From a virus (Duplodnaviria > Caudoviricetes): 25,316 nt of DNA. The stretch is taken from the IMG/VR virus record IMGVR_UViG_3300032320_001311, positions 1-25,316 of that record; one strand, given 5' to 3'. The notes under the pieces are model-generated. The model made no database searches, had not been told where the DNA came from, and saw only the letters and a list, made by a program, of their open reading frames with translations. The translations under genes and the position numbers were made by a program. Positions 3,397 to 22,573 of this stretch are shown here, in pieces (position 1 is the first letter of the stretch; each line of letters begins with the position of its first letter).

Positions 3397-3740
3397 TGAG
3401 TCAACAAGTTCAATTAACAAAAAAAGTATATGGACGAGGATTGTATCCTCAAATAATTGATACTAACTTTAATCAATTAGTTCCACCAGTAGAGGTAACA
3501 CCATCTTCTATAACGGTACCTGAATTTTTTGAGGCGTATGAAAATTTATTTTATGAAATTCCAGTAGCTGGAGATATTAATTCACATGAATATCTGGTAG
3601 TTAGAAGTTCTGAATATATAGGGGCAACAGTCCAAAATGATGAGATTAATTCTTTGTTAGATGAAATTAACTCATTAAGACAAGAATTGCTAGATGCAAA
3701 CAAAACAATTTTAGATCTAACAACAAATAGTATAGGTTAA
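3396..3740 (+). CDS. Hypothetical virion-associated protein with C-terminal coiled coil
   Basis: 114 aa, TAATG-coupled on both sides; heptad-like C-terminus DEINSLLDEINSLRQELLDA. Confidence 0.7.
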   Translation: MSQQVQLTKKVYGRGLYPQIIDTNFNQLVPPVEVTPSSITVPEFFEAYENLFYEIPVAGDINSHEYLVVRSSEYIGATVQNDEINSLLDEINSLRQELLDANKTILDLTTNSIG

Positions 3741-6700
3741 TGGAAAATGTAAATATTCAAAATATAAATTACGTAGCGGTTCCCGAGAATCAAGAATATA
3801 CTCCTAAAGATGAGAGTATACTGAACTCGGTCTTTATTATCAAAAACTTTGGTTATAAAGAAACTGACTATGTTGAAAACTACATTTATTCCCCCTCAAA
3901 TGAGTTATTATCTTCAAATTATAACTTTACAAATTATAGCGTAGAACTATCTTATGAAGATAGTGTTGTTTTTAATCAACTAACTTTATCACCAGAAAAT
4001 GATGTTAAAGCACAAGGAATAAACCAGGGTACTGTAAATTCTATTTACTATTTTTATAGAAAATTACTTGGAAGTTCTCCAAATTCTAAATTTTTACTTA
4101 AAACAATATCTACAGATCGAACAGAATTACGTGTAGTTCTTCTTTCTGTATCGGTAGATGATTTAGCTGATCAATTTTTTAATTGGTCTAATGAAGTAAA
4201 TTCAAGAAACTACTATAGTGATTTTACACTTAATTTTGGTAATAATAATACTTTAATTGGTGTAAATATTGCTTATGAAACAGCACTGGTTCCTACTTTA
4301 TTAATTAAATTATATGAACCTTTACCTGCTGAATATGATATAAATGATAGTTTTTGGTTAGTAGAAGAAATATCAGATCCTATTACTTATGAGGTTACAA
4401 TTGAACAAGAATTTATTAACGTAATTGAATCTAATCAGTTAAGAGGTCCAAATATTACTATTGATATTGATGAAAAACCAAACTTATCAACCCCTCCATT
4501 AACTTTAGACTCATTACGTTCAACAGAAGTAACTTCTTCATTACAACAATTAATATCTTTATTTGATGAAACAAGTGCTGATATTAATATTGAATATGAA
4601 ATATCTTCTGGTTCAACAACATGTACTGCTTTTGAAAATTTTGTACACTTTTCTTCTGCCGAAGAACGTTTAACAAATTTTAGATATAAATTATCATTAA
4701 TAGAAACTTATCAAGCAGAAATTAATACTTTAAATTCTGTAGGATCTGTTCCTTATATTTCCGAAAGTAAATTTTCATTACAAGGAAAACTTGATGAAGT
4801 AATTAAAAACTTTGATAATTACGAATATTTTCTTTACTATACTTCTGCATCTTCGGCTTGGCCTAAGATAAATAATAGTCAACCGTATCAATTATATCCA
4901 ATATCAGACCCAGTTGCATTAACTTGGTATGGAGATTCTACTTATGGTTCTCAATATTATGGAGGTCAAATATTAAGTGCATCTGTTTATGATCAACAAA
5001 ATCCAAATTATGTTTGGAATACAATGCCTATTTATGTTTCAACTGATCCTCAGAACTCAATAATTCAGTTGTTTATTTCAATGTTAGGTCAACACTATGA
5101 TTATTTATGGACCTACATTAAAGCAATTACTGATATTCAAAATGCAGATAACAGATTAGAACATGGTATTTCAAAAGATTTAGTATCTACAGCGTTACAA
5201 TCTTTTGGAATTAAATTATATAGTAATAACCGAAACAATGAAGATATTTATACCGCTTTCTTAGGTGTAACTCCTTCTGGTTCGTTAATTCCGTCAACAG
5301 GTTCATTATTAATTACAAATTATGTAACCGCTTCAAACCAAACCACTCCAGATAGCGATTTAGTAGCAGAAGGATATAAGCGTTTATACCATAATTTACC
5401 ATTGTTATTAAAAGCAAAAGGTACTTATAATGGTTTAAGAGCATTAATGAATTGTTTTGGTATTCCTCCCACTTTATTACGTATAGATGAATATGGTGGT
5501 GTAAATAAAGATACAAGTCAAGTTCAACAATACTTTGAACGCTTTGCATTCCAAACAGATTTTCAAGGATATGGGAACGTTAATGTTCCTTGGTTACCTT
5601 CAATGGCTCAATTTATTGATACAGGTAATCCTAATGTAATGCCTGATGCTATTGAATTTAGATTAAAAACACCAGGTATTCCTTCATCAGATATCATCGA
5701 ACCTGTATTCCAGGTAGGTGCTGATACTAATTTTAGATTTGGTATTCAACTTGCCTATAGTCAATCTTATAATAATTTTGTAAGTGGTACTATTACATCT
5801 CCAGCATCTCCTTATTATAATCAAAGATTAGGAGGTAATTTTCAAGAGTATGGTTTAATGAAATTAGTAATGTCCGGTTCTCAAGGATATTGTTATAGTG
5901 ATCCTATTTACTTACCCTTCTTTAATAAAGGATGGTGGAGTATTTTATTATATAGACAAAATGGTGCTGCCGATAATATTTCAGACAACACATATTGGGT
6001 AGTAGCTAAAAATTCAATTTATCAAGGTGAAGATGGTGCAACAGTAGGTTTTCAAGCATCTTCATCAATATATGTTATGGGAGCTGTTTCCTCTTCTTAT
6101 AATAATTCTTGGAACTATTATAATGCTACTCCTATAGTATCTGCCTCTTTAATACCTTTAGACGCCTATTTAGGTGGTACTGGTAGTAATGGTGTATTAT
6201 CACCAAACGGAATTGCATTTACAGGTTCTTTCCAAGATTTAAGATATTGGAGAAATGAATTAGGATTAGAATCATTTAATAAACACGTTTTGAACCCTAT
6301 GTCTATTCAAAATAATGAATACTCAGGTTCAGACGACTCATATAATGATTTAGTTTTCCGTTTAGGTTTAGGTAATGATTTAATGGCTACTCCTAATGGA
6401 CTTAATTTTACAGGTAGCCGATATAGTGTGGATGCTTATGGTAACGCTTATTATGCCACAGCTTCATATACTGCCTCCGCTGCTGTATTACAATCAATAC
6501 ATCCAGCAATTACAGGTACTGTAGCTACAACAGCTTCATTTATTATTCCCTATAATCCATCATCTTATGATATTAATATGTATGGAGTTTATAAATACGA
6601 TCTTACATTAAGTGGAAGTCCTGTTGGCCATTATATATTCACCTCTTCATTTCCAGGAACTAATCCTTCCTATTATAGTGGAAATTATTATACTGGTTCT

Positions 6701-9469
6701 ACAAGTTACCATTTATTTGCCTTATCTTATGGTATAAATAATTCTGGTAGTGCAGGTAATACTACTTATTATGCTTTATTAAACGAACCAAATGTAGGAG
6801 CTATTACTGCTGTAAATGATAAGATAAGAATTGTTGATCAAAATATAATAACAGGAAGTACATTATCTCCCTTTATTACTATAACCCAACCCCAATTAGA
6901 TCCTTTCACACCAGATTTACCTTATATAGATGTAAGTTTATCTCCACAAAATTCTATTGATTATGATATTATCAATCAATTAGGATATTGGAGTATTGAC
7001 GATTATATAGGTGATCCTCTGGATGCAAGAAGTACTTTTTATCAAAGACTTGCTCAATTAAGAAATTATTACTTTAAAAAATATATTCAAAAATATAGCG
7101 TAACAGACATTATGCGTTTGTTAGGTTATTTTGATAACTCATTATTCAAGATGATTAAGGATTGGGTTCCTGGACGTGCTAGTTTAGCATCTGGGGTTAT
7201 AATTCGTCCACATATTCTTGAAAGAGTTAAAATGCAAAGATTTGAACCTGACTTCTATACAGGAAGTTATTATACTGGTTCAATTCCAATGGTAGATATA
7301 ACTGCAAGTTATGGTTATCAAGAAGATAGAATCACATTTAATTATGACTATACAACAGCAGCACCAAACGTCCCAACTACAAATTCTGTAGCATCAACAT
7401 TTACAACTGCTTCTGGAATTTATATTTACAATGTAGATGACCAAATGTCTCCATATAATGGAGAATATGGTGGAAGTCAAATATCAGTTTACCATTTACC
7501 TACTTCAAGTATGGTAATGGAACCTAATAATTTAGATTTTCTTGACATGCCTCTTGCAGATCAGGTTCCAACAGCTATAAGTTATTCCGTATTACCTTTC
7601 TTACCTACATTAAACACAGTACAAAGTGATAGAAAAAGTACTCAACGATTAGATGTAGATTATTCTTCTAATCCAAACGTAGCAGTAAATAATTACTATA
7701 TTACTCAAAGATATGATGGTGGTTTAACAGGTTCAACTGCTGCTTCTGCTAATTCTGAATTAGCATTAGCTTTATCTCAACAATCATCTTCATTCTTAAA
7801 TGCTCCTTCTCAGGATAGTAACTATACAATGAAACCATTAATCGATTCAAAATATAATGGTATCAAATTAGTAGCTAGACAATATAATACTTATTCTGTT
7901 GGGGATATTTCATATGGTGATTCACCTGTTATTAGTAAAAATTCAATTTATTTTGCTTACTTTAAAGAAGTAGTAGGCACAGGATCATGTATGGCCCTAA
8001 CGTCATCTGCTTTACCTTATATCAGTAATGTTTATACAAAGTATTTAATTGATGCTCAATCAAATGTACTTGAATTAACAAAACAAAATAAAAACATATT
8101 TTCAATACAAGAAATATTTAATAATCAACAAGCAGTTATTTCATTGTTTAATAATCAACAGCCATCTAAACAAGTATTCTTAGATGGTTTACAAGATATA
8201 TATGCCGGTGGATTTAGATATACTCCTGTATTATATAATCCTTATGGTGAATCTACATTAAGATACTCTCTTACAACTTCAGTAGTACAACAAATCCCGG
8301 CTGCTGGTGAGGGTGGAATGTATAATGCTTCTCAAGCATCCTCAGTATGTATTATTCCTGGTAGCCCTGGAATATCATCTAGTGTTTATTATTATAATCA
8401 ATCAGGATATCTAGGAGGATATTATAACGTAGGTGCTACAATTTTTCCTACTTTTTCATTACAAAGAACAGGAGATTTAGCTACTACTTATATTGATAAA
8501 GCAGTAAACGTATACGTTAAATTTACGGGTAGTCTTAGTTTTACTGCTTATTTTGCTTCAACTGATTATAATTCTCCAGCCTATGTTAGTGTTTCTCCCG
8601 GTTATGAATTAGTAAATTTTACATCAGGTTCTGATGTAATAAATGATAATTCTGCTTTTGCTCAGGGACAATTTTATGGTGATGCTTTAATTACCATTCC
8701 TGCCTATACTAATTATGTTGACTATAATGGTAATGGAATTTATATAAGTGCTTATGCTGACATTGCAGGTAATACTTCATTTTCTATTCCCTTTGTAAAT
8801 CAAGGATTTTATCCCCGATCATTAAATTTTAGTAATGCCGGAGGACCAGGAAACGCATATGCAATTACTTCTCAATCTACTTCTACAATTACTCAAATTA
8901 TATCAGGGGCGGTTGATACAGGATATGGTTCAAATACTTTCTTTAAACGAGATACAGGTTCATTTAATATTTTAACTGGTTCTGTTTCTATGTCTTATTG
9001 GTATGGACAATTTATTCAATCAGAATCTGCAGCCGCGGTTGCTGGTGGTTATGAAAGAATAGAAGAAGTATATCGCATTCAAAAAGGAGATTTGTTTAGA
9101 TTTTATAATAAAGAAAATAATCAATTTGATAAATCTTTTGAAAGAGAAGTTAAAGGTGTAAATATTCCAACTAAAACAACTATTGAAAATAGTGGATTTA
9201 CTCAAGCTATGACTATTGAATTTGATGACCAAATTGATCCTCGTTCTTGTCAAGATTGGATAACTACTGCGAATAATGATACTGCTTATCAAGTCAGTAA
9301 ATTCATCATAATGAGAAAACTTCCAGACGAAACAAATATTACACTTAATTATCAAAAACAACCAGGTTTAACCTCAGATGGTATAATTATACCAGCGGAT
9401 GCCCCAGTAAGTTTAAGAGATGAAGCAGGTAATATTGTAAAACAACTTAAAGCACAAAACTTAATTTAG
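3740..9469 (+). CDS. Large baseplate wedge/tail protein (gp7 / P2 gpI-like KGT motif) with LamG-like domain
   Basis: 1909-aa ORF; 'LYHNLPLLLKAKGTYNGLRALMNCFGIP' is the KGT motif of gp7/gpI-type proteins; 'FFNKGWWSILL...AYLGG...FTGSFQDLRYW' is concanavalin/LamG-like; downstream of gp25-gp6. Confidence 0.7.
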   Translation: MENVNIQNINYVAVPENQEYTPKDESILNSVFIIKNFGYKETDYVENYIYSPSNELLSSNYNFTNYSVELSYEDSVVFNQLTLSPENDVKAQGINQGTVNSIYYFYRKLLGSSPNSKFLLKTISTDRTELRVVLLSVSVDDLADQFFNWSNEVNSRNYYSDFTLNFGNNNTLIGVNIAYETALVPTLLIKLYEPLPAEYDINDSFWLVEEISDPITYEVTIEQEFINVIESNQLRGPNITIDIDEKPNLSTPPLTLDSLRSTEVTSSLQQLISLFDETSADINIEYEISSGSTTCTAFENFVHFSSAEERLTNFRYKLSLIETYQAEINTLNSVGSVPYISESKFSLQGKLDEVIKNFDNYEYFLYYTSASSAWPKINNSQPYQLYPISDPVALTWYGDSTYGSQYYGGQILSASVYDQQNPNYVWNTMPIYVSTDPQNSIIQLFISMLGQHYDYLWTYIKAITDIQNADNRLEHGISKDLVSTALQSFGIKLYSNNRNNEDIYTAFLGVTPSGSLIPSTGSLLITNYVTASNQTTPDSDLVAEGYKRLYHNLPLLLKAKGTYNGLRALMNCFGIPPTLLRIDEYGGVNKDTSQVQQYFERFAFQTDFQGYGNVNVPWLPSMAQFIDTGNPNVMPDAIEFRLKTPGIPSSDIIEPVFQVGADTNFRFGIQLAYSQSYNNFVSGTITSPASPYYNQRLGGNFQEYGLMKLVMSGSQGYCYSDPIYLPFFNKGWWSILLYRQNGAADNISDNTYWVVAKNSIYQGEDGATVGFQASSSIYVMGAVSSSYNNSWNYYNATPIVSASLIPLDAYLGGTGSNGVLSPNGIAFTGSFQDLRYWRNELGLESFNKHVLNPMSIQNNEYSGSDDSYNDLVFRLGLGNDLMATPNGLNFTGSRYSVDAYGNAYYATASYTASAAVLQSIHPAITGTVATTASFIIPYNPSSYDINMYGVYKYDLTLSGSPVGHYIFTSSFPGTNPSYYSGNYYTGSTSYHLFALSYGINNSGSAGNTTYYALLNEPNVGAITAVNDKIRIVDQNIITGSTLSPFITITQPQLDPFTPDLPYIDVSLSPQNSIDYDIINQLGYWSIDDYIGDPLDARSTFYQRLAQLRNYYFKKYIQKYSVTDIMRLLGYFDNSLFKMIKDWVPGRASLASGVIIRPHILERVKMQRFEPDFYTGSYYTGSIPMVDITASYGYQEDRITFNYDYTTAAPNVPTTNSVASTFTTASGIYIYNVDDQMSPYNGEYGGSQISVYHLPTSSMVMEPNNLDFLDMPLADQVPTAISYSVLPFLPTLNTVQSDRKSTQRLDVDYSSNPNVAVNNYYITQRYDGGLTGSTAASANSELALALSQQSSSFLNAPSQDSNYTMKPLIDSKYNGIKLVARQYNTYSVGDISYGDSPVISKNSIYFAYFKEVVGTGSCMALTSSALPYISNVYTKYLIDAQSNVLELTKQNKNIFSIQEIFNNQQAVISLFNNQQPSKQVFLDGLQDIYAGGFRYTPVLYNPYGESTLRYSLTTSVVQQIPAAGEGGMYNASQASSVCIIPGSPGISSSVYYYNQSGYLGGYYNVGATIFPTFSLQRTGDLATTYIDKAVNVYVKFTGSLSFTAYFASTDYNSPAYVSVSPGYELVNFTSGSDVINDNSAFAQGQFYGDALITIPAYTNYVDYNGNGIYISAYADIAGNTSFSIPFVNQGFYPRSLNFSNAGGPGNAYAITSQSTSTITQIISGAVDTGYGSNTFFKRDTGSFNILTGSVSMSYWYGQFIQSESAAAVAGGYERIEEVYRIQKGDLFRFYNKENNQFDKSFEREVKGVNIPTKTTIENSGFTQAMTIEFDDQIDPRSCQDWITTANNDTAYQVSKFIIMRKLPDETNITLNYQKQPGLTSDGIIIPADAPVSLRDEAGNIVKQLKAQNLI

Positions 9470-11302: not shown

Positions 11303-14300
11303 ATGAGTTTTGCATACAAAACATTAAAAGGATCGGATACCACTCAGGCGCCGTATGTTGCTAACAAGCAATATACGTTCCCTAGTTCGTCTTTATCAAG
11401 TTCGAACATTGTAGTTTATACAGGTGAATATGATCCACAGTACATGATAAGTGGTACTGTTTATAATGCTTTTGATCCAATAAACGATACTCAAGATAAC
11501 GGATACTATAGAAGATTAATTTTTGATTCAATTCAGAAATTATACTACCAAAACTATATTTCTGGTTCTCAATCGGGTATGTTTTTTGTTTCCTCTGCTT
11601 ATGACAACTACGATCAAACAACTCTTGTTTCAGGAGCGATGGCCGGAGCTGTAGTAAAAATATTAAATAATTTTACAGCATCCGGGGGCAAATATGGAAC
11701 AGATTATTATGATTTAGGAAGTTATGCTATTTTAGAACCAACTAAAATAAGAGTAATTTCAATCCCTCAAGACATTTATGGTAATGGTATTAAACCAAAT
11801 ACCTTTTCTATTACAAGTTCAACATACGATATTAGAGATGATGGACAGGGGAATTTGTATGATTATTTATCCACACGTTCATTTTATGACGGAACTGATA
11901 AGTACCAACAATCTTACTATTCGGCGAATGCTGAAGGAACATATGTTGGAAATATAGTTTACTCTCCTGGTTTTGCCATTATTACTAACCCAGATTATTT
12001 ATGTTTTTATCCATCCTCTCCTATTGCGAGAAATGATAATTATACTATATTAAATGTTAGTGAAAGTAAAGTATTACCTATTTTACTTAATGATACTGAT
12101 GACTGTAAAGAAATTGATGATGCTACAGTAATAACTTACCCATTAGATGGATATACATTCCCTTCATTTTCAATAGTTGGAGGTGAAATTCATATTACTA
12201 ATTGCGGTGATAATAATTTACAAGTCACCCCAGGTACATATAAAATTTTATATACAGTAAATAATACTGAGGGTGTAATAAGTAATAAAGCTACTTGTAG
12301 TTTATATTTACAAAGTAGTAAATTAACTTCATCCTTAATTAGTTTCACCTCAGGATGTTTTAATGATTTAAATAGTCAAACAGCATCATTTACACTTGAT
12401 TTAGGTATTCCTCCATACAGTTATTCTCTTGATAATTCATCATGGGTACCCCTTAGTCAACAATATGGTGGCAAGTATGGTATTGCTTACTATAATACTA
12501 GTTCTTATGCGTTTGGAATTAACGGAATAACAGATTGTGGATTATATCAACCTACTTTTAGTATTAATATTCCTACATCAGATAATGTTAATGTTTACTT
12601 TAGAGATGTAGAAGGAACCATAATATCTTATTCTTTAGATACAAGAATGCTTCCCACTATCCCAAATTCAAGTCATTTAGATACTTGTTTAAATGGAAGT
12701 ACAGGTTGGATTTCAGCTAGTGCTACTGGTGGAAGCCCAGTTAATACTTTATCAGCAAGTATCCAATCAGGTTCATATAACAGTGGTTACTTTCCATTAG
12801 TAGGAGGTTCTTATGTATTTACAGGTTTAAATAGTGGTAGTTATACTGTTACTTGGAAAGATGGTAATAATTGTACTACTTCTTCTACAGAAGTTATTAC
12901 AACTCCTCCCCCAGTTGTTGTTAGTGTTCAAGCAGTAGAAGCTGATTGTCCTAATGATACTGGTACTCCAAATGGTGGTATTGCTGTTAATGTAAGCGGA
13001 GGATCAGGAAATTATAATTATAGATGGTGGAATGGTTCTTCATTTGTAAAATTTGTAGAAGATCCTACTGGTTTAGTTGCTGGAACTTATAATTTATTTG
13101 TAAGTGATAGTACAGGATGTAATAATACTACTTCAAGTAACATTGTTGTTAATGCTCTTACAGTTATTGGTTTTTCAAGTGCTAGTGTAACTAGTCCATT
13201 ATGTTATAGTGGTAATAATGGTTCAATTCTTGGTGGTGTGTTAAGTGGTGGTTCTGGCAGTTTAGTTCCTACATGGAATGGCCCAAGTGGATTTACTTCA
13301 AATAGTCTTAATATTATTAACTTAGCATCTGGTAACTACTATTTAACAGCATCAGATACTCTTACAGGATGTTATCATATATTCGGTCCTTATACAATTA
13401 CAACTCCAGCAGAATTTAAATCATCTTCTTTTAGTTATACTAGTTCAGTAGGTTCTACTAATCAAACATTTAATGCTATATTCACAGGTGGTACTCCTCC
13501 TTATACAGCATCTTTATATTTAAGTGCAAGTGGAACCGGATTGACATTTGTTACAAGTAGTAGTAGTATGGGTACTGTATCTATGGTTCCTAATATGTGT
13601 TATACAGCATCTACTTATTGGACTTTAGATGCCTATGATGCTAATGGTTGTCATATGACAAACTTTATGAGTGGTGCTCAATTATATGTCCCTACTCAAG
13701 TAACAGCCCAAAATGTTGTATGTTATTCTTCAATACCAGATGATCCTTTACTTTGTGGGTGTGAAAGTGAAGAATATGTTACTTTTTATATAAGTTCTTC
13801 TAACTCAACTGATCCAAATGATTTATTTTATAATTATATGGATTTGTATAATGATGGAGCTAAAATATATAATGATTGTAAATTATCTTCTTTAGCAACA
13901 GGTTCTTATTATGGAAACCAAAATGTAGTTACTTTTGGTTCAGGGTCAACAGCAGGAACTATTGCATATTTTGATCCTTGTGCTGTACCACAACCAAACA
14001 CAGTAACACTTAATATTGTTAATACTGCAAAAATACTATCAGAAACCATCGTAACAACTACCTTTGAAGCTACTAATCCTAATACGCAAATATACACCTT
14101 GCCTCTGTATAATGCAACAACTTCAAGTGTACATAACATAGCACAAACTGGCTATCTTGATATGATCTCTTTTGTAGATCAGGCGGTAGGTTTTCCTGGA
14201 TATGTTACTGTTACTGTTGATGTGCAAATAGATAATCTTGTTCCATACACATCTTATTTTGAATGCTCCTTTTCAACTTCTGCTGTTTTTTATATAAACG

Positions 14301-14383
14301 GGTCTAATGGAATATTCATAGATTCTGAAAGTGCTTATGTTGTAACTGTAACCTATTCAGCGGGTCTTGGAGAATGTGTATAA
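11303..14383 (+). CDS. Tail fibre / receptor-binding-like protein with Ig-like (Big_9/cadherin-like) domain and SprB-type repeats
   Basis: 1026 aa; aa ~240-335 'PIARNDNYT...LPILLNDTD...YTVNNTEGVISNKAT' is Ig-like; repeats such as 'C.NGSTGWISASATGG...FTGLNSGSYTVTWKDGNNC' and 'GGIAVNVSGGSGNYNYRW...TGLVAGTYNLFVSDSTGC' are SprB-like. Confidence 0.75.
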   Translation: MSFAYKTLKGSDTTQAPYVANKQYTFPSSSLSSSNIVVYTGEYDPQYMISGTVYNAFDPINDTQDNGYYRRLIFDSIQKLYYQNYISGSQSGMFFVSSAYDNYDQTTLVSGAMAGAVVKILNNFTASGGKYGTDYYDLGSYAILEPTKIRVISIPQDIYGNGIKPNTFSITSSTYDIRDDGQGNLYDYLSTRSFYDGTDKYQQSYYSANAEGTYVGNIVYSPGFAIITNPDYLCFYPSSPIARNDNYTILNVSESKVLPILLNDTDDCKEIDDATVITYPLDGYTFPSFSIVGGEIHITNCGDNNLQVTPGTYKILYTVNNTEGVISNKATCSLYLQSSKLTSSLISFTSGCFNDLNSQTASFTLDLGIPPYSYSLDNSSWVPLSQQYGGKYGIAYYNTSSYAFGINGITDCGLYQPTFSINIPTSDNVNVYFRDVEGTIISYSLDTRMLPTIPNSSHLDTCLNGSTGWISASATGGSPVNTLSASIQSGSYNSGYFPLVGGSYVFTGLNSGSYTVTWKDGNNCTTSSTEVITTPPPVVVSVQAVEADCPNDTGTPNGGIAVNVSGGSGNYNYRWWNGSSFVKFVEDPTGLVAGTYNLFVSDSTGCNNTTSSNIVVNALTVIGFSSASVTSPLCYSGNNGSILGGVLSGGSGSLVPTWNGPSGFTSNSLNIINLASGNYYLTASDTLTGCYHIFGPYTITTPAEFKSSSFSYTSSVGSTNQTFNAIFTGGTPPYTASLYLSASGTGLTFVTSSSSMGTVSMVPNMCYTASTYWTLDAYDANGCHMTNFMSGAQLYVPTQVTAQNVVCYSSIPDDPLLCGCESEEYVTFYISSSNSTDPNDLFYNYMDLYNDGAKIYNDCKLSSLATGSYYGNQNVVTFGSGSTAGTIAYFDPCAVPQPNTVTLNIVNTAKILSETIVTTTFEATNPNTQIYTLPLYNATTSSVHNIAQTGYLDMISFVDQAVGFPGYVTVTVDVQIDNLVPYTSYFECSFSTSAVFYINGSNGIFIDSESAYVVTVTYSAGLGECV
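12671..13650 (+). repeat. Three to four degenerate SprB-type protein repeats (about 80 aa each)
   Basis: Recurring C-x(3-8)-G-x-I-x(4,5)-GG ... L-x-x-G-x-Y-x(4)-D-x(2,3)-(G/N)C pattern in translation; not conserved at DNA level; boundaries approximate. Confidence 0.7.
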
Positions 14384-15210: not shown

Positions 15211-16149
15211 ATGGTTAATTCAATACTTGTTGGACTATTAGATAGCGTATTAGGAAGAGGTAATTCTACCGCACGAGGTAATTATGCTTACCAATGTCCA
15301 TTCTGTAGTCACCATAAGAAAAAATTAGAAATAAACATGGTACCTAATGCTAAAGGAGAAAATCCATGGCATTGCTGGGTATGCGACGCTAAAGGTAAAA
15401 CATTAGTAGGTTTATTTAAAAAAATTAAGGTTGATAAGGAAAAACTATTTGAATTAAAATCAGCACTTGGATTTTCAGAAAAACGTAAAGACGATAAAGA
15501 AGAAGTAATTAAAATTGAATTACCTAAAGAATTTATCCCAATGTATGAGGCAAATCCTAAAAGTATAATGGCTAAACACGCTGCTTTGTACCTTAAAAAT
15601 AGAGGAATAAAGAAAGAAGACATTATTAAATATAATATTGGTTATTGTGAATCCGGCCGTTATGCCAATATGGTTATTATTCCTTCTTATAATGAAACGG
15701 GAAACCTAGAATATTTTGTAGGTCGTAGTTTTGAAAAAGATCCTAGAAAAAAGTTTGATGCGCCTCACTCAAACAAAAATACCCTTATTGGTTTTGCTAA
15801 TTTAATAAATTGGAATGTACCTGTTATTTTATGTGAAGGTCCATTCGATGCAATATCAATCAAACGAAATGCTATCCCATTATTTGGTAAGAATGTTTCT
15901 AAAAAGCTAATGCAGAAACTTGTTACCAATGATGTTAAAAAAGTCTATATCGCACTTGATAAAGACGCTATAAAGAATACTCTAAAATTATCCGAGGAAA
16001 TTATGAATTCTGGAAAAGAAGTGTATATAGTAGAATTGGAAGATAAAGACCCCAGTGAAATGGGTTTCGAAAATTTTACTAAATTGATACAAAAATCAAT
16101 TCCACTTACTTTTTCATCATTCTTTTCTCTCAAACTAGCACAAGCATGA
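15211..16149 (+). CDS. DNA primase (zinc ribbon plus TOPRIM)
   Basis: CPFC...HCWVC zinc-binding domain; 'YLKNRGI', 'IGYC', 'IIPSY...YFVGR'; TOPRIM acidic motifs 'LCEGPFDA', 'IALDKDA', 'KDPSE'. Confidence 0.9.
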   Translation: MVNSILVGLLDSVLGRGNSTARGNYAYQCPFCSHHKKKLEINMVPNAKGENPWHCWVCDAKGKTLVGLFKKIKVDKEKLFELKSALGFSEKRKDDKEEVIKIELPKEFIPMYEANPKSIMAKHAALYLKNRGIKKEDIIKYNIGYCESGRYANMVIIPSYNETGNLEYFVGRSFEKDPRKKFDAPHSNKNTLIGFANLINWNVPVILCEGPFDAISIKRNAIPLFGKNVSKKLMQKLVTNDVKKVYIALDKDAIKNTLKLSEEIMNSGKEVYIVELEDKDPSEMGFENFTKLIQKSIPLTFSSFFSLKLAQA

Positions 16150-16925
16150 TAGAAAAAAATTCTAACATTATTCATGATCCTAAAATTAAAAGGGTTATTG
16201 AGTACACACAAGACAACAAACAAGTAAATGTATTAGACCAACGTTTTTACAGACGTAATGGTAAATATTATCCATCTGTAACGTCTATTTTAAACTTTTT
16301 TCCTAAAAATCAATTTTTCCATAACTGGTTAAAAGATGTAGGACACAACAGTGAAATTATTGCTAATAAAGCAGCAAACGAAGGTACTCAAGTACATAAC
16401 GCAATTGAAGCATTTTTACTTGGTGAAGAATTAGAATGGATTAATCCTGATGGAAGTGCTAGATATAATTTAGAAGTTTGGAAAATGATTTTGCGTTTTG
16501 CTGATTTTTGGAACACATATAAACCAGAATTAGTAACAACAGAATATCATTTATTTTCAGATGAACATTGTTATGCAGGAACAACAGATATTATTTGTCG
16601 TTTTCAAGATAAAGTATGGTTATTGGATATTAAAACATCAAATTCAATCCACACTTCATATAATTTACAATTGGCGGCGTACGCTAAAGCATGGAACGAA
16701 ACTCATAACGAGAATATTGATGAAACTGGTATTATGTGGTTAAAATCATCCACTAGAGGCGCTTCTAAGGACAAAATCCAAGGAAACGGCTGGCAGCTCA
16801 AGAATTGTGGTAATATTGAAGATAACTTTAAAATGTTCCTAAACATATACGACATTTATAAACTTGAAAATCCAGATGCTAAACCTATGACTGAATCATT
16901 ACCAACAACTATTAAGATAATCTAA
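16146..16925 (+). CDS. PD-(D/E)xK family exonuclease
   Basis: 'YPSVTSIL', 'GTQVHNAIE', 'E..L.S....YAGTTD', 'LLDIKTS', 'QLAAYA' motifs; ATGA overlap with primase. Confidence 0.88.
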   Translation: MIEKNSNIIHDPKIKRVIEYTQDNKQVNVLDQRFYRRNGKYYPSVTSILNFFPKNQFFHNWLKDVGHNSEIIANKAANEGTQVHNAIEAFLLGEELEWINPDGSARYNLEVWKMILRFADFWNTYKPELVTTEYHLFSDEHCYAGTTDIICRFQDKVWLLDIKTSNSIHTSYNLQLAAYAKAWNETHNENIDETGIMWLKSSTRGASKDKIQGNGWQLKNCGNIEDNFKMFLNIYDIYKLENPDAKPMTESLPTTIKII

Positions 16926-16936
16926 GCATATTTATT
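16926..16936 (+). repeat. GCATATTTATT direct repeat, left copy (contains ATATTTAT promoter motif)
   Basis: Identical 11-mer at 18390-18400; the pair brackets the GT2 and phosphoesterase genes. Confidence 0.6.
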
Positions 16937-16939
16937 TAT

Positions 16940-17644
16940 GTGAACAACAATCAATTTACAATAGTAATTCCTTGTAAAAATGAAGGAATAAATATATACG
17001 ATTGTTTAGGATTTATCTGCAGACAAAGAGGAATTAAAAATACTAAAGTCATTGTTGCTGATAATTCTGATGATAAAGAGTCATTAGAATGGTTATATAA
17101 AGCTCAAATAGATTACAAATATTCTATTAAAATAGAAGTTATTAAAGGGGGGTATCCAGCTAAAGCGCGCCTTGAAGGTTCGAAATTAGTGGATACCCCT
17201 TATATATTATTTTTAGATGCTGATATAATGTTATTAGCAAAAAATATATTAGAGGTTATATCTGACTTTAAAGGAGATTTATTAACTGTTCCTTTTATAA
17301 CCGAAAAAGGATGGAACTGGGTGTTTCGCATATTTGATTTATTTCAAAATTTAAGTATTAAATTAGGTACACCATTTGCCGTAGGTGGTTTTCAATATTG
17401 GAATACTCAAACATACTGGGAATTGGGTGGTTATAAAGAAGATGAATTATTTGCAGAAGATTATTCTTTATCTTCTAAAGTTAAACCTAAAAAATTTTTT
17501 ATTTTTGAAACCAAAGGGGTATTCACCTCAGCAAGACGCTTTAAGAAAAAAGGCATTAGTTATATGTTTTGGATTATGATTAAAAGCTATATTAATAGAA
17601 ACAATCCAGAATTTTTTAAACACCATCACAATTATTGGAAATGA
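16940..17644 (+). CDS. Glycosyltransferase family 2
   Basis: 'TIVIPCKNE', 'VIVADNSDD', 'AR..G', DxD motif 'LFLDAD', 'LGGY.E....AEDY.LS', 'TSARR'; GTG start. Confidence 0.92.
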   Translation: MNNNQFTIVIPCKNEGINIYDCLGFICRQRGIKNTKVIVADNSDDKESLEWLYKAQIDYKYSIKIEVIKGGYPAKARLEGSKLVDTPYILFLDADIMLLAKNILEVISDFKGDLLTVPFITEKGWNWVFRIFDLFQNLSIKLGTPFAVGGFQYWNTQTYWELGGYKEDELFAEDYSLSSKVKPKKFFIFETKGVFTSARRFKKKGISYMFWIMIKSYINRNNPEFFKHHHNYWK

Positions 17645-18381
17645 GATATCAATCCATTATAGTTTCAGATTTACATTTGGGAACTAAAGATTCTAAAGCA
17701 GAAGAGTTTATAGAATTTTTAGAAAAACATCCCACTGATTTATTAATATTAAATGGTGATATTGTAGATGGATGGGCATTAAATAGAGGTACAAAATGGA
17801 AAAAACAACATACAAAAGTTATTTCTAAGTTATTAAGGTTATCAAACACAACACAAATAATTTGGATAAGAGGAAACCATGACGAATTTATACAAGATTT
17901 TATCGGAACCCATTTGGGGTCAATTGAAATTAGAGAAGATTACATCATCAATACAAAGATTTGGGTGGAAAATGATATATATAGGAATGAAAATTATTAT
18001 GTTTTTCATGGAGATGTTGTGGATGTTTTTATAACCAAATATAAATGGTTATCTAAGATTGGGGCCGTTGGATATGACTTTGCGTTATGGCTTAATAGAG
18101 TTTACAACACATATCGCAAATGGAAAAATTTACCATACCAATCTATATCCCAAAAGATTAAAAGTGGTGTAAAAGCAGCTACTAATTACATTAATGATTT
18201 TGAAACTACAGCATTATCAATGGCTCATAAAAAAGGATGTAACGGTGTTATTTGTGGACATATACATCAGCCTGAGGATAGAATAATTAATGGTAAACGA
18301 TACCTAAATAGTGGTGATTGGATTGAAAATATGAGTGCCATTCTTATTGATCGTAATGGACATATTTGCCTATATAAATAA
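17641..18381 (+). CDS. PlcP-like metallophosphoesterase (LpxH/UDP-2,3-diacylglucosamine hydrolase-like superfamily; putative phospholipase C)
   Basis: All five calcineurin-like motifs: SDLHLG, GDIVDGW, GNHDE, HGD, CGHIH, plus NSGDWIE. GNHD and the 'WL..IG..GYD..LWLN...N..R....LPY.S.S..IK..VK.A.N.I..FE' insert match PlcP-type rather than GNRD-type LpxH enzymes. Start placed at ATG 17641 (ATGA overlap) rather than 17635. Confidence 0.85.
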   Translation: MRYQSIIVSDLHLGTKDSKAEEFIEFLEKHPTDLLILNGDIVDGWALNRGTKWKKQHTKVISKLLRLSNTTQIIWIRGNHDEFIQDFIGTHLGSIEIREDYIINTKIWVENDIYRNENYYVFHGDVVDVFITKYKWLSKIGAVGYDFALWLNRVYNTYRKWKNLPYQSISQKIKSGVKAATNYINDFETTALSMAHKKGCNGVICGHIHQPEDRIINGKRYLNSGDWIENMSAILIDRNGHICLYK

Positions 18382-18448: not shown

Positions 18449-19189
18449 ATGAAATTAAAAGTAATTAAGGAAGCACCGAAAGATTTAAAAGCAGTATTAA
18501 TTGCCGGTCCATCTAATGCGGGCAAATCACAATTTGTTAAATCAGTTATTCCTACTGAATATCAAAAGTATGTATTAAATCCTGATAAATTTTATGAGCC
18601 TGAATTAGCTAAAATTGGTGGGGGTTCAATGAACATGAAAGATTTTTCACCTGAACAATTATCAGCAGCCGCTAAAGCACAAGCAGTAGCTGTAAAACAA
18701 TACAGATCGGAATTAGAAAAAGCAATTGGTGATAAACCAGTTATTTTGGATATTACAGGTGGTAGCTTTAATAAAGTAAAAGAAACTAAAACAAAATTAG
18801 AAAGTCAAGGATATGATGTGATGATGGTATTATTATATGCATCACCTTATACTACTTTGTCTCGTAATCTTAATAGAGATAGGTCATTAGATCCAGGTAT
18901 CGTGTTACGTAACTGGGAAGATGTGATTAAAAATGCAGAACAATATGAGCAACTTTTTGGTGCTGACCATTTTGCTTTAATAGATAATGACCCCGAAGGT
19001 GCTAATAAAAGTTTTGATTTAGCTGATGTTGAATCACTATTTGAAAAGTCTAAAATTTGGGCTTTAATATCCGACGAAGATAAAATAAAAATAGAAGCAC
19101 GTATCAAAGAACTTATAGATAGAACTGAAGATGCTCAATTTGTGGCATTTGATGAATTAGCAACTAAATTAAAAGGATTTTTAAAATAA
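18449..19189 (+). CDS. P-loop kinase, Zeta-toxin / AAA_33 (polynucleotide kinase)-like
   Basis: Walker A 'IAGPSNAGKS', 'VLNPD', 'VILDITG', 'GYDVMMVLL' and lid 'SRNLNRDRSL'. Confidence 0.8.
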   Translation: MKLKVIKEAPKDLKAVLIAGPSNAGKSQFVKSVIPTEYQKYVLNPDKFYEPELAKIGGGSMNMKDFSPEQLSAAAKAQAVAVKQYRSELEKAIGDKPVILDITGGSFNKVKETKTKLESQGYDVMMVLLYASPYTTLSRNLNRDRSLDPGIVLRNWEDVIKNAEQYEQLFGADHFALIDNDPEGANKSFDLADVESLFEKSKIWALISDEDKIKIEARIKELIDRTEDAQFVAFDELATKLKGFLK

Positions 19190-20079
19190 TGGCAAACATA
19201 TATTTTGATATGGATGGTGTATTAGTCGACTACTTTGGTGGTTTGAAAGATACTGCTAAAAAATTAGGCGTAGCCGAAGATGATAATAAAGCTATTTGGG
19301 ATGAAATTAATAAAAATCCTATTGAATGGTGGACTAATTTAAATCCAATTCCTGATGGCATGAAATTATTTAATGCTGTAAAATCTAAGGAACCATCAAT
19401 TTTATCTTCGGCGGGTGCTAAACAAGAAACAAAGCAAGGTAAATTAGCTTGGTTAAAAAAGAATGGTTTGTCTCCTTATTTAAAAGAAATTGTATTTGTA
19501 AATAACAAATCGGCAAAAAAGAAATATGCCCAAGATGGTGACATATTAATTGACGATAGAAAAGATAATGTTGCTGATTGGGAAATGGCTGGTGGGAAAG
19601 GATATGTGTTTAATAACAATTCAGGACAAATTTTACAACAATTAAAATCTGTAAAAGAAAATTATTGGAAAAATTATTTAAATAAAAAACGTTTACAGGA
19701 AAATATAATTAAAGAATTTCCTAGTCCTTTCTTTCCAACAATTAAAAATTTTGTTGATTTTGTAGGTAATAGACTTGAATTAAAAGACGTTCCTAAAGTT
19801 CATATTATTAATTCTCCAAATTTCTCTCAACAATATAAGAGTTTTGGTGGATATTTACCGGCACAAAATAAAATTTCTGTTGTTGTAAAAGGTAGAGGTT
19901 TAGCAGATATATTAAGAACAATTGCTCATGAAATGGTTCATGCGCATCAAAAAGAAGCAAATAAATTAGATATAACCTCTGGTGAAACTGGTTCTCCTAT
20001 TGAAAACGAAGCAAATGCTTTAGCAGGAGTTATTATGAGAGATTATGGAAAAGAAAATCCAATGATATTTGAGTTATGA
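19189..20079 (+). CDS. HAD 5'(3')-deoxyribonucleotidase-like domain fused to C-terminal zincin metallopeptidase-like domain
   Basis: HAD motifs 'YFDMDGVLVD', 'ILSS', 'GK..W', 'ILIDDR..N...W...GG'; C-terminal 'LRTIAHEMVHAHQ...ENEANA' (HExxH at 19927-19941 plus a downstream Glu). Confidence 0.8.
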   Translation: MANIYFDMDGVLVDYFGGLKDTAKKLGVAEDDNKAIWDEINKNPIEWWTNLNPIPDGMKLFNAVKSKEPSILSSAGAKQETKQGKLAWLKKNGLSPYLKEIVFVNNKSAKKKYAQDGDILIDDRKDNVADWEMAGGKGYVFNNNSGQILQQLKSVKENYWKNYLNKKRLQENIIKEFPSPFFPTIKNFVDFVGNRLELKDVPKVHIINSPNFSQQYKSFGGYLPAQNKISVVVKGRGLADILRTIAHEMVHAHQKEANKLDITSGETGSPIENEANALAGVIMRDYGKENPMIFEL

Positions 20080-20591
20080 TAAATTTAAAAGAATTAATTG
20101 AAGAAGAAGGCATAACATCCTATCAGATCTATTGTGATATGGATGGTGTTATTGCCGATTTTGAAGCCCGTTTCGATCATTTTTTCGGGATGTCTCCAAG
20201 TGAATATGAAGCTAAAAATGGCCGAAGAGCATTTTGGAACCAAATTGATAATAATATAGGAGTTAAGTTCTGGGTTGGTATCCCTTGGATGCCAGACGGA
20301 CATCAACTTTGGGATTATATTAAAAAATACAATCCAATCTTATTATCCTCTCCATCCACATCAGAATCAAGTCGTATAGGTAAACGCTTGTGGGTAAAAA
20401 AATACTTACCGGGTACTAAATTAATTTTAGCATTTCCTGATCAAAAAGCAAATTATTCTGGTGAAGGAAAAATATTAATAGACGATAGATTAGAACCAAA
20501 CATCCAAATGTGGAGAAATAAAGGGGGTATTGGTATCCATCATACAAGTGCCAGCGACACTATTTCGCAACTTAAAGAATTAGGTTTATGA
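20076..20591 (+). CDS. HAD 5'(3')-deoxyribonucleotidase-like protein
   Basis: 'IYCDMDGVIADF', 'FW...PWMPDG..LW', 'GKRLW', 'ILIDDR', 'W..KGGIGIHH'. Confidence 0.85.
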   Translation: MINLKELIEEEGITSYQIYCDMDGVIADFEARFDHFFGMSPSEYEAKNGRRAFWNQIDNNIGVKFWVGIPWMPDGHQLWDYIKKYNPILLSSPSTSESSRIGKRLWVKKYLPGTKLILAFPDQKANYSGEGKILIDDRLEPNIQMWRNKGGIGIHHTSASDTISQLKELGL

Positions 20592-21530: not shown

Positions 21531-22193
21531 ATGCCCTATACATCAGTCGGTAAATGCGTTTACAAAAAGAACGAAGACGGTAAACGTGGTGAAAAGGTAG
21601 GATGCACAAAAGGTGCAATTAAAGACTACTTAGCCGCATTATACGCTTCAGACAAAAACGAAGCAAAATTAGCACATCAACAAATCAAAGAAGCACTTCA
21701 AGATAATGTTGACCCAACAACAGCAGCTCTTAATATTGATGACCAATTAGGTACATTCTTTATTGTGCAAAAACCTACAAAAGATGCAGCGGTTGAAAAT
21801 ATTGTGTGCGAAGGTGATTTATTTACTATCGCTAACTTATTTAAACGTGGTTTAGATTTTGATAACGTGTTTGGCCTATATAAAACCGCAGAAAAAGCTC
21901 AAAGAGTTGGTGAATCATTAATTAAAGAAATGAGAAACCAAATGAGAGAAAATCTTAAAGCAGGTGATGTAAAAGTATCTGAACTTGAACAAGATATTCA
22001 AGATACTAAGATGGAAATTGAACATCATATGCAATCAGCTATGACTGAACCTGGTACTCGTGACGCACGCTTTGCCGATGCTGAAAGATTATTAGATGTT
22101 CTTAAAGCAAAAGAAGCTATGTTAGCTAAATTAAAAGGTGCTTTAGAAACAGAAGTAAAAAAATTAGACGAAGCAGAAAAAACTAAAAAATAA
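21531..22193 (+). CDS. Hypothetical protein: basic Cys-containing N-terminal module and coiled-coil C-terminus
   Basis: 220-aa ORF; 'MPY...GKCVYKK...G.KVGCT....KDYLAALYA' then helical regions containing IKE sites. Confidence 0.75.
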   Translation: MPYTSVGKCVYKKNEDGKRGEKVGCTKGAIKDYLAALYASDKNEAKLAHQQIKEALQDNVDPTTAALNIDDQLGTFFIVQKPTKDAAVENIVCEGDLFTIANLFKRGLDFDNVFGLYKTAEKAQRVGESLIKEMRNQMRENLKAGDVKVSELEQDIQDTKMEIEHHMQSAMTEPGTRDARFADAERLLDVLKAKEAMLAKLKGALETEVKKLDEAEKTKK

Positions 22194-22573
22194 TGAATTC
22201 ACTAGCAGCATTCCTTTCAATATTATTTGAAGCAAGAAAACAAGCACATATCTATCATTTACAAGTTAAAGGATTAGGTTCATATGCCGCTCACAAAGCG
22301 TTAAATGAATTCTATGATGAACTTTTAGAATTAATTGATGGTTTAGCTGAATCATCCCAAGGTAAGTACGGTATAATCACAGGTTATACTAATGCCTTTG
22401 AAGTAAAAGATCTTAATAATATCCAGGACGCATTATTATTCGTTCAGGAATTAGCATTACTTGTTGAAGTAGAAAGAGCAACAATTCCTCAAGATTCATA
22501 TATTCAAAATCAAATAGATGAATTAGTAGCTTTATTATATTCAACCGTTTATAAGCTCCAAAACTTACAATAA
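22193..22573 (+). CDS. Ferritin/Dps-like four-helix protein (DUF5856-like)
   Basis: 'QAHIYHLQVKG.GSYAAHKALNEFYDEL....DGLAE..QG.YG' and 'IQN.IDE...L...T.YKL' resemble the Dps ferroxidase pattern. Confidence 0.75.
   Translation: MNSLAAFLSILFEARKQAHIYHLQVKGLGSYAAHKALNEFYDELLELIDGLAESSQGKYGIITGYTNAFEVKDLNNIQDALLFVQELALLVEVERATIPQDSYIQNQIDELVALLYSTVYKLQNLQ

Follow-up and report, generated by a model that had tools for sequence, protein, structure and literature searches.

The window analysed here, a 25,316-nucleotide stretch of viral DNA (Duplodnaviria; Caudoviricetes; IMG/VR record IMGVR_UViG_3300032320_001311), carries a real and selected two-gene cassette that is a phage variant of a known bacterial phosphate-starvation pathway. 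The first gene encodes a GT2 glycosyltransferase and the second a PlcP-family metallophosphoesterase. What the sequences show is that the enzyme belongs to the PlcP family with its catalytic motifs intact, that both genes are under purifying selection and almost always linked, and that GT2 alternates with Agt. In the reading that we favour, and hold with moderate confidence from sequence, the PlcP-family enzyme would make diacylglycerol and the GT2 would glycosylate it, likely freeing phosphorus. The features concerned are these.

16146..16925, plus strand: phage exonuclease, flanking gene; primase-exonuclease order as in Flavobacterium phage immuto, which is without the cassette
16928..16935, plus strand: ATATTTAT, putative phage promoter-like motif 12 nt 5' of the GT2 start
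2211, 9485, 14403, 16928, 18392, 21162, 21492 and 24460, plus strand: intergenic copies of ATATTTAT, with structural genes among the genes downstream
16940 (GTG) or 16943 (ATG)..17644, plus strand: GT2 glycosyltransferase ORF; Pfam PF00535, 48.9 bits against a cut-off of 23.3
17641..17644, plus strand: ATGA stop/start overlap joining the GT2 and phosphoesterase genes, read from the sequence
17641 (ATG)..18381, plus strand: PlcP-family metallophosphoesterase, 246 aa; PF00149/PF12850, ORF intact
17872..17883, plus strand: GNHD motif, residues 78-81, encoded by GGAAACCATGAC; in 80/80 viral relatives
18010..18231, plus strand: predicted amphipathic helical lid insertion, ~residues 124-197 (model; hydrophobic moments 0.46-0.61)
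18449..19189, plus strand: predicted P-loop kinase/ATPase, flanking gene; in 6/80 related loci, no constant partner of the cassette

A sequence-only reading of this DNA had described a GT2 gene overlapping a metallophosphoesterase by ATGA, with GNHD at 17872-17883; both are confirmed in the sequence, and Pfam backs both ORFs. The two genes are under purifying selection, with dN/dS of 0.09-0.16 and 0.06-0.07 in 3/3 pairwise comparisons. Among viral loci seeded with the phosphoesterase (best 80 of 131), the GT2 lies upstream in 77, and the other three keep plcP without GT2. Because this order persists while flanking genes vary widely, and because both genes are under purifying selection, the coupling is not due to chance. 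Seeding with the GT2 gave a similar picture: plcP adjoins it in 138/141 viral loci, comprising 75/77 new loci (best 80 of 458) and 63/64 loci with a family match (66 fetched), and the three misses end at contig edges. The loci are not independent; the 291 that carry a full plcP come down to 194 distinct proteins, in 58 groups at 80%. Several PlcP lineages are paired with GT2, and L179-type phages combine a GT2 of the window's clade with another PlcP lineage, the two genes lying the opposite way round. Since both gene orders occur and the GT2 and PlcP trees disagree, the pairing has been remade more than once.

Some relatives show additional genes at the cassette. A small protein of 94-97 aa with no Pfam match lies between GT2 and plcP in two loci (L005, L025) and stands in place of GT2 in a third (L079). 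A TonB-dependent receptor and a lipoprotein are encoded directly upstream in 4/80 loci (L015, L016, L035, L037). Short contigs were found in one RNA run, two of them exact (one inside GT2). Cover is patchy and DNA may have been carried into the library, so we make no claim on expression or habitat.

The window (31% GC) is part of a large myovirus-like phage and encodes a baseplate wedge, primase, exonuclease, nucleotidases and a GH19 endolysin. Contigs bearing near-identical GT2 proteins reach 176 kb. The nearest cultured relative among 50,697 phage records is Flavobacterium phage vB_FspM_immuto (Immutovirus), at 47.5% for the baseplate wedge and 53.6% for the exonuclease. Because immuto is the nearest cultured phage, yet a record labelled Microcystis phage also matches the window's baseplate (46.4%), a Bacteroidota host is likely. 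Immuto and the window have the primase-exonuclease-nucleotidase order in common, but neither cassette gene has a match in immuto. As immuto keeps the primase-exonuclease order with no cassette behind the exonuclease, the GT2-plcP pair is an accessory insert. Downstream (18449-20591), the P-loop kinase is followed by two 5'(3')-deoxyribonucleotidase-like genes, which relatives have within longer fused proteins, and a DUF5856/Dps-like 'starvation-inducible' family protein is encoded at 22193-22573. The tail region contains a 1909-aa protein with no family match (3740-9469) and a 1026-aa protein with a weak SprB-repeat match (11303-14383).

The phosphoesterase is a PlcP-family member, mislabelled LpxH in databases, an assignment made on sequence grounds. 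Using profiles built from bacterial sequences only, the window enzyme scores 242 and 245 bits against PlcP and 29 and 48 bits against LpxH; the PlcP profile beats LpxH in 194/194 distinct viral proteins. In a tree of 34 of 96 rows, with rows <190 aa and duplicates left out, the enzyme lies inside the PlcP clade with support 100/99, and LpxH falls outside as a separate clade on a long branch. The phylogeny with PlcP and LpxH references that the sequence-only reading had proposed thus upholds its view of a PlcP-like rather than LpxH-like enzyme, as do the profile scores. The nearest cellular PlcP lineage to the window's is a Parabacteroides protein (support 99/96). Joining the window's clade to Bacteroidota LpxH-like proteins is rejected by the AU test (p-AU 0.004). 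A tree that keeps the phage clade together with all LpxH passes the same test (p-AU 0.19), a result that bears only on where the PlcP family is rooted and allows more than one root. The window enzyme is 37.7% identical to the PlcP-type protein of S. meliloti and 39.7% identical to that of P. aeruginosa. These references are 47% identical to each other, and were picked by context and this mutual identity, not by locus tag; the value reported in PMC8528852 for PA3219 and S. meliloti PlcP is 46%. The P. aeruginosa PlcP-type gene precedes a GT4. All metal-site motifs of the phage enzyme are intact (D10, H12, D40, N79, H80, H123, H207 and H209; dimetal pattern DxH, GD, GNH, H, HxH).

Comparison with LpxH removed two of the arguments from which the PlcP assignment had started. 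GNHD, as opposed to the GNRD of canonical LpxH, had been taken as a discriminator. It was rejected, as all 8/8 Bacteroidota LpxH-like proteins fetched read GNHD and only the four proteobacterial LpxH read GNRD, making the argument invalid for a Bacteroidota host. The long amphipathic insert, regarded as a mark of PlcP-type enzymes, is not PlcP-specific: the best structural matches of the enzyme model in the PDB are LpxH chains (TM 0.53-0.61, 15-19% identity), which have a helical lid at the same place. A PDB sequence search with the enzyme gave 0 matches. With no PlcP structure among the PDB results, LpxH comes out as the closest fold by default. The insert (~residues 125-197) is helical in the model, with residues 133-145 and 170-182 below pLDDT 50, and is predicted to bind the membrane or acyl chains. 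LpxH and the phage enzyme have in common a calcineurin-like fold with a helical lid; however, their identity is 19-23% and the phage enzyme scores far below the LpxH family cut-off. Its best NCBIfam match is the LpxH model NF003743, at 46.1 bits against a cut-off of 134, with PlcP-type references at 38-55 bits. Bacteroidota LpxH-like proteins likewise fall below this cut-off, and therefore the tree and profiles carry the LpxH test. A separate, better LpxH match exists besides the PlcP-like gene in 5/5 Bacteroidota genomes. Among PHROGs, only weak families were found for the phosphoesterase.

The GT2 is a single-domain protein of 233-234 aa whose alignments show DxD (D92-D94), GGF, AEDY (171-174), TSARR (195-199) and a C-terminal F..YW. 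Its predicted model (pLDDT 93.6) matches GT-A folds at TM 0.59-0.65, with PDB matches at 15-19% identity. Hydropathy indicates amphipathic helices and no transmembrane helices in either cassette protein; in the GT2 the amphipathic helix lies at ~122-140. NCBIfam and PDB matches included no characterised close relative, and PHROGs has no family for the GT2. The closest NCBIfam model is TIGR04283, arsenosugar glycosyltransferase, at 54.4 bits (67.3 for a distant GT2 member); with a cut-off of 182, an identification as this enzyme was rejected. A search of 1.84 billion representatives returned 33 proteins at E 1e-30 or better, along with many full-length relatives of 230-245 aa, and of 20 clusters looked up one had a bacterial MAG name, the others generic names or none. 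In 301 genomes sampled across the phylum Bacteroidota, no bacterial source of the GT2 appeared, the best match scoring 116 bits vs 275 for the window protein itself, and in the GT2 tree the 35 phage rows group in a single clade, separate from four bacterial proteins of that sample. The family has so far been found only in phage-like DNA, the cellular search being this Bacteroidota sample. The 50,697 phage records contained no full-length GT2-family match, and so yielded no cultured phage carrying both genes. One locus filed in a Methanobacterium MAG (L084) is the only genome-collection locus with the pair; its neighbours are phage-type and it is probably a mis-binned contig.

Two cultured phages, Pelagibacter phage Mosig (Mosig_00120) and Synechococcus phage S-SRM01 (QPX48289), have PlcP-side homologues annotated LpxH, which, unlike the window cassette, are without a glycosyltransferase partner. 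In Mosig (L081:3897-5732) pstS is divergent from the PlcP-side gene, and the syntenic locus L308 has an agt that is missing in Mosig. The divergent S-SRM01 homologue (L082:5001-5705) reads GNHE and lies near psbA, without a glycosyltransferase. Partners were counted in 80 loci kept from 109 relatives seeded by the Mosig homologue. Just downstream of plcP, a GT4 is found in 46 and a GT2 of the window's family in 14; ten have neither, eight end at an edge, two are partial and none has both. The downstream GT4 is 34-41% identical to a P. aeruginosa Agt1-type protein (44 of 46, long alignments). Three sister groups mix GT4 and GT2 partners, with support of 100/99, 100/100 and 86/99. In those loci whose flanks were checked, the neighbours are phage genes, for T4-type polymerase, helicase, UvsX, primase, reductase and virion proteins. 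Since the slot behind plcP in T4-like phages holds either a GT4 Agt or this GT2 but never both, our results suggest that GT2 replaces Agt. Agt is a proven diacylglycerol glycosyltransferase (PMC4796936, PMC8231724, in the parts available), and by context the GT2 that takes its slot therefore likely does the same job. A glycolipid role for the GT2 is thus likely, with strong indirect support from its alternation with canonical Agt.

Among the closest known systems is the bacterial PlcP-Agt operon (S. meliloti PlcP; Phaeobacter MED193; SAR11 HTCC7211; P. aeruginosa PA3219-PA3218), whose PlcP proteins are 38-40% identical to the phage enzyme with all motifs in common. It likewise couples a PlcP gene to a glycosyltransferase gene, and its canonical plcP-agt order occurs in other phages. 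It differs from the window cassette in having a GT-B fold GT4 downstream rather than a GT-A fold GT2 upstream, and in its use of a Pho box, which the phage-encoded cassette is without. In Bacteroidota, plcP often overlaps an MJ1255/VC2487-type glycosyltransferase gene (PF13528; 15/40 loci), an overlap as in the phage cassette. That partner is, however, a GT-B protein encoded downstream, and GT2 occurs in 0/40 such loci. One Flavobacteriaceae locus (L097) has plcP, a GT-B gene and an LpxH-like gene side by side.

PlcP-family activity is described as Mn2+-dependent cleavage of PE/PG to diacylglycerol (PMC8231724, in part). We infer phospholipase activity, a diacylglycerol acceptor, head-group recycling and a low-phosphate benefit for the phage cassette as well. 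The PlcP-family enzyme would bind the inner membrane through its lid and cut host PE or PG to diacylglycerol and a phosphorylated head group. The GT2 would then add a sugar from an NDP-sugar to the diacylglycerol and, by removing it, may keep the membrane a bilayer. Host phosphatases would recycle the head-group phosphate, with some phosphorus freed for phage DNA. The infected cell would in this way swap phospholipid for a phosphorus-free glycolipid, which could be of benefit under phosphate limitation.

How much phosphorus this could supply can be estimated. The flavobacterium Dokdonia, whose accumulation of aminolipids speaks against the favoured reading, is reported to hold 2.63 million phospholipid phosphorus atoms per cell, or 1.72 million when starved (PMC4796936, in part). 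A 180-kb phage genome needs 0.36 million, so that by arithmetic on these values the whole lipid pool would serve ~5-7 virions at most; a separate geometric estimate of lipid phosphorus gives 7-19 virions. The idea that the phage mines membrane phosphate to build a large genome is thereby limited, even if some phosphorus could be freed. The gain would be useful to a starved cell with a small burst and modest overall, and its small size leaves room for a reading in which the same chemistry serves to change the envelope, by blocking superinfection, lowering grazing or timing lysis, with phosphorus release as a side effect.

Signals in the DNA bear on this alternative in both directions. Intergenic gaps make up 1.3% of the window's DNA, yet eight of ten plus-strand copies of ATATTTAT fall in them, at 12-57 nt from the next start (binomial p 4e-14); the total count in the window is not above chance. 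TATTTAT also lies 5' of 24/88 and 16/43 related cassettes. ATATTTAT is likely a promoter of this phage group, and expression of the window cassette probably depends on such a phage-type promoter and not on a host Pho box. Predicted sigma-70 promoters and terminators were at chance level. No Pho box site was found in the window with the proteobacterial consensus, and this consensus showed no clear enrichment upstream of cassettes in relatives. The window also has no TTAACA repeat and no pstS, and pstS is absent from all loci seeded by the window's own genes or by P0298. The lack of a phosphate signal in the window, the placing of the cassette behind a motif that also precedes structural genes, its position among exported-protein genes in many relatives and the small phosphorus gain all fit an envelope purpose. 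PlcP-dependent remodelling has been reported to lower ciliate ingestion (PMC9457565), and phage attachment to change with membrane lipid type (PMC9938194), in the parts of these papers available.

Other phage lineages argue against it. A TTAACA repeat with an 11-bp period lies 5' of the cassette in 18/87 and 7/42 relatives, compared with 8/778 and 0/269 other upstream regions; the hexamer was chosen after the Mosig locus was seen and related loci are not independent. Among the periods compared, 11 gives the strong signal, whereas a period of 10 gave 2/42 (p 0.018) and periods 9, 12 and 13 gave nothing. The same repeat precedes 3/40 Bacteroidota plcP genes vs 0/232 controls, and 11 bp is Pho-box geometry; it is absent before 34/34 Agt-type cassettes. 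TTAACA-N5-TTAACA stands ~50-100 nt 5' of the cassette in L017, L021, L179, L312 and others, as a candidate Bacteroidota-type Pho box, and TGTAAC/TGTCAT versions occur in L259, L269, L338, L367, L371 and L382. Open-licence PMC and bioRxiv texts yielded nothing that identifies the TTAACA repeat with a Pho box of Bacteroidota. A pstS gene is present no more than 4 kb away in 5/80 Mosig-seeded loci, once with a phosphate-porin-like gene, and in phage Mosig it is divergently transcribed from the PlcP-side gene. In one locus (L344:979-8679) hsp20, pstS, a phosphate-porin-like gene, plcP and agt follow one another ahead of a T4-type DNA polymerase and together make up a complete phosphate-stress block. 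Bacterial plcP is itself phosphate-regulated (PMC4796936, PMC8115612), with F. johnsoniae plcP induced on Pi depletion at FC 8.59 (PMC8115612), in the parts of these papers available. With pstS, the phosphate-porin-like gene and the 11-bp repeats beside the cassette in these lineages, we regard a primary envelope purpose as unlikely, at perhaps one chance in a handful.

A smaller chance attaches to the pair acting on another lipid, such as a phosphorylated ceramide or a polyprenyl-linked carrier, whose dephosphorylated product the GT2 would then glycosylate. Some Bacteroidota make phosphosphingolipids, and the GT2's nearest family model, below its cut-off, belongs to an arsenosugar pathway. 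However, it is this GT2 family that takes the place of Agt in T4-like phages with a PlcP close to a SAR11 phage's, and diacylglycerol would be the common product across such different hosts. It is very doubtful that the substrate is no lipid at all but a nucleotide sugar, a virion protein or DNA to be modified. Phage glycosyltransferases often modify DNA or proteins, and in the window the cassette sits between replication and nucleotide genes, but relatives have it in freely varying positions, amphipathic helices occur in both proteins and the exchange partner is an Agt homologue. Least credible of all is a functional LpxH in a pair that alters lipid A or LPS: database names, the best NCBIfam match, the best PDB folds and the listing of viral 'lpxH' under LPS biosynthesis (PMC10653327, PMC9611531, PMC13384950, in part) favour it, whereas the NF003743 score is at the level of PlcP-type references, tblastn gave no match with E. 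coli LpxH, and profile scores and tree favour PlcP.

Among the matches listed in open-licence PMC and bioRxiv texts we found no description of a phage PlcP; one may exist in supplements or in papers under subscription, those that describe Mosig and S-SRM01 among them. In a review that covers lipid renovation and phages, the part available contains no passage with 'phage-encoded' or 'auxiliary' (PMC9804370). The genes appear widespread: viral contigs contain 458 stretches of the GT2 family and no fewer than 131 + 109 PlcP-like ones. Entries of viral 'lpxH' in lists of auxiliary genes may deserve a second look. The conversion of phospholipid to glycolipid that we favour is testable, as the genes are small and without transmembrane helices, and the cultured phage Mosig has the PlcP-side gene and infects HTCC1062, a host described as without plcP in the available part of PMC4796936.

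It is possible, and we put it forward tentatively, as somewhat less than an even prospect, that many unrelated large phages rewrite host lipids through a captured PlcP together with phage-evolved GT2 diacylglycerol glycosyltransferases that have repeatedly displaced Agt. GT2 enzymes are inverting and GT4 enzymes retaining. If the proposal is true, the GT2 glycolipid would have the opposite anomeric linkage to that made by Agt and could be a lipid marker of infected cells, and the GT2 is a candidate new family of lipid glycosyltransferases. To our knowledge, known phage phosphorus genes (pstS, phosphatases) bring in outside phosphate. Unlike pstS, an importer, the window cassette would recycle phosphate inside the cell, taking it from the host's own membrane and altering that membrane during infection. 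Such a viral route in aquatic phosphorus cycling would have gone unnoticed behind the name 'lpxH'.
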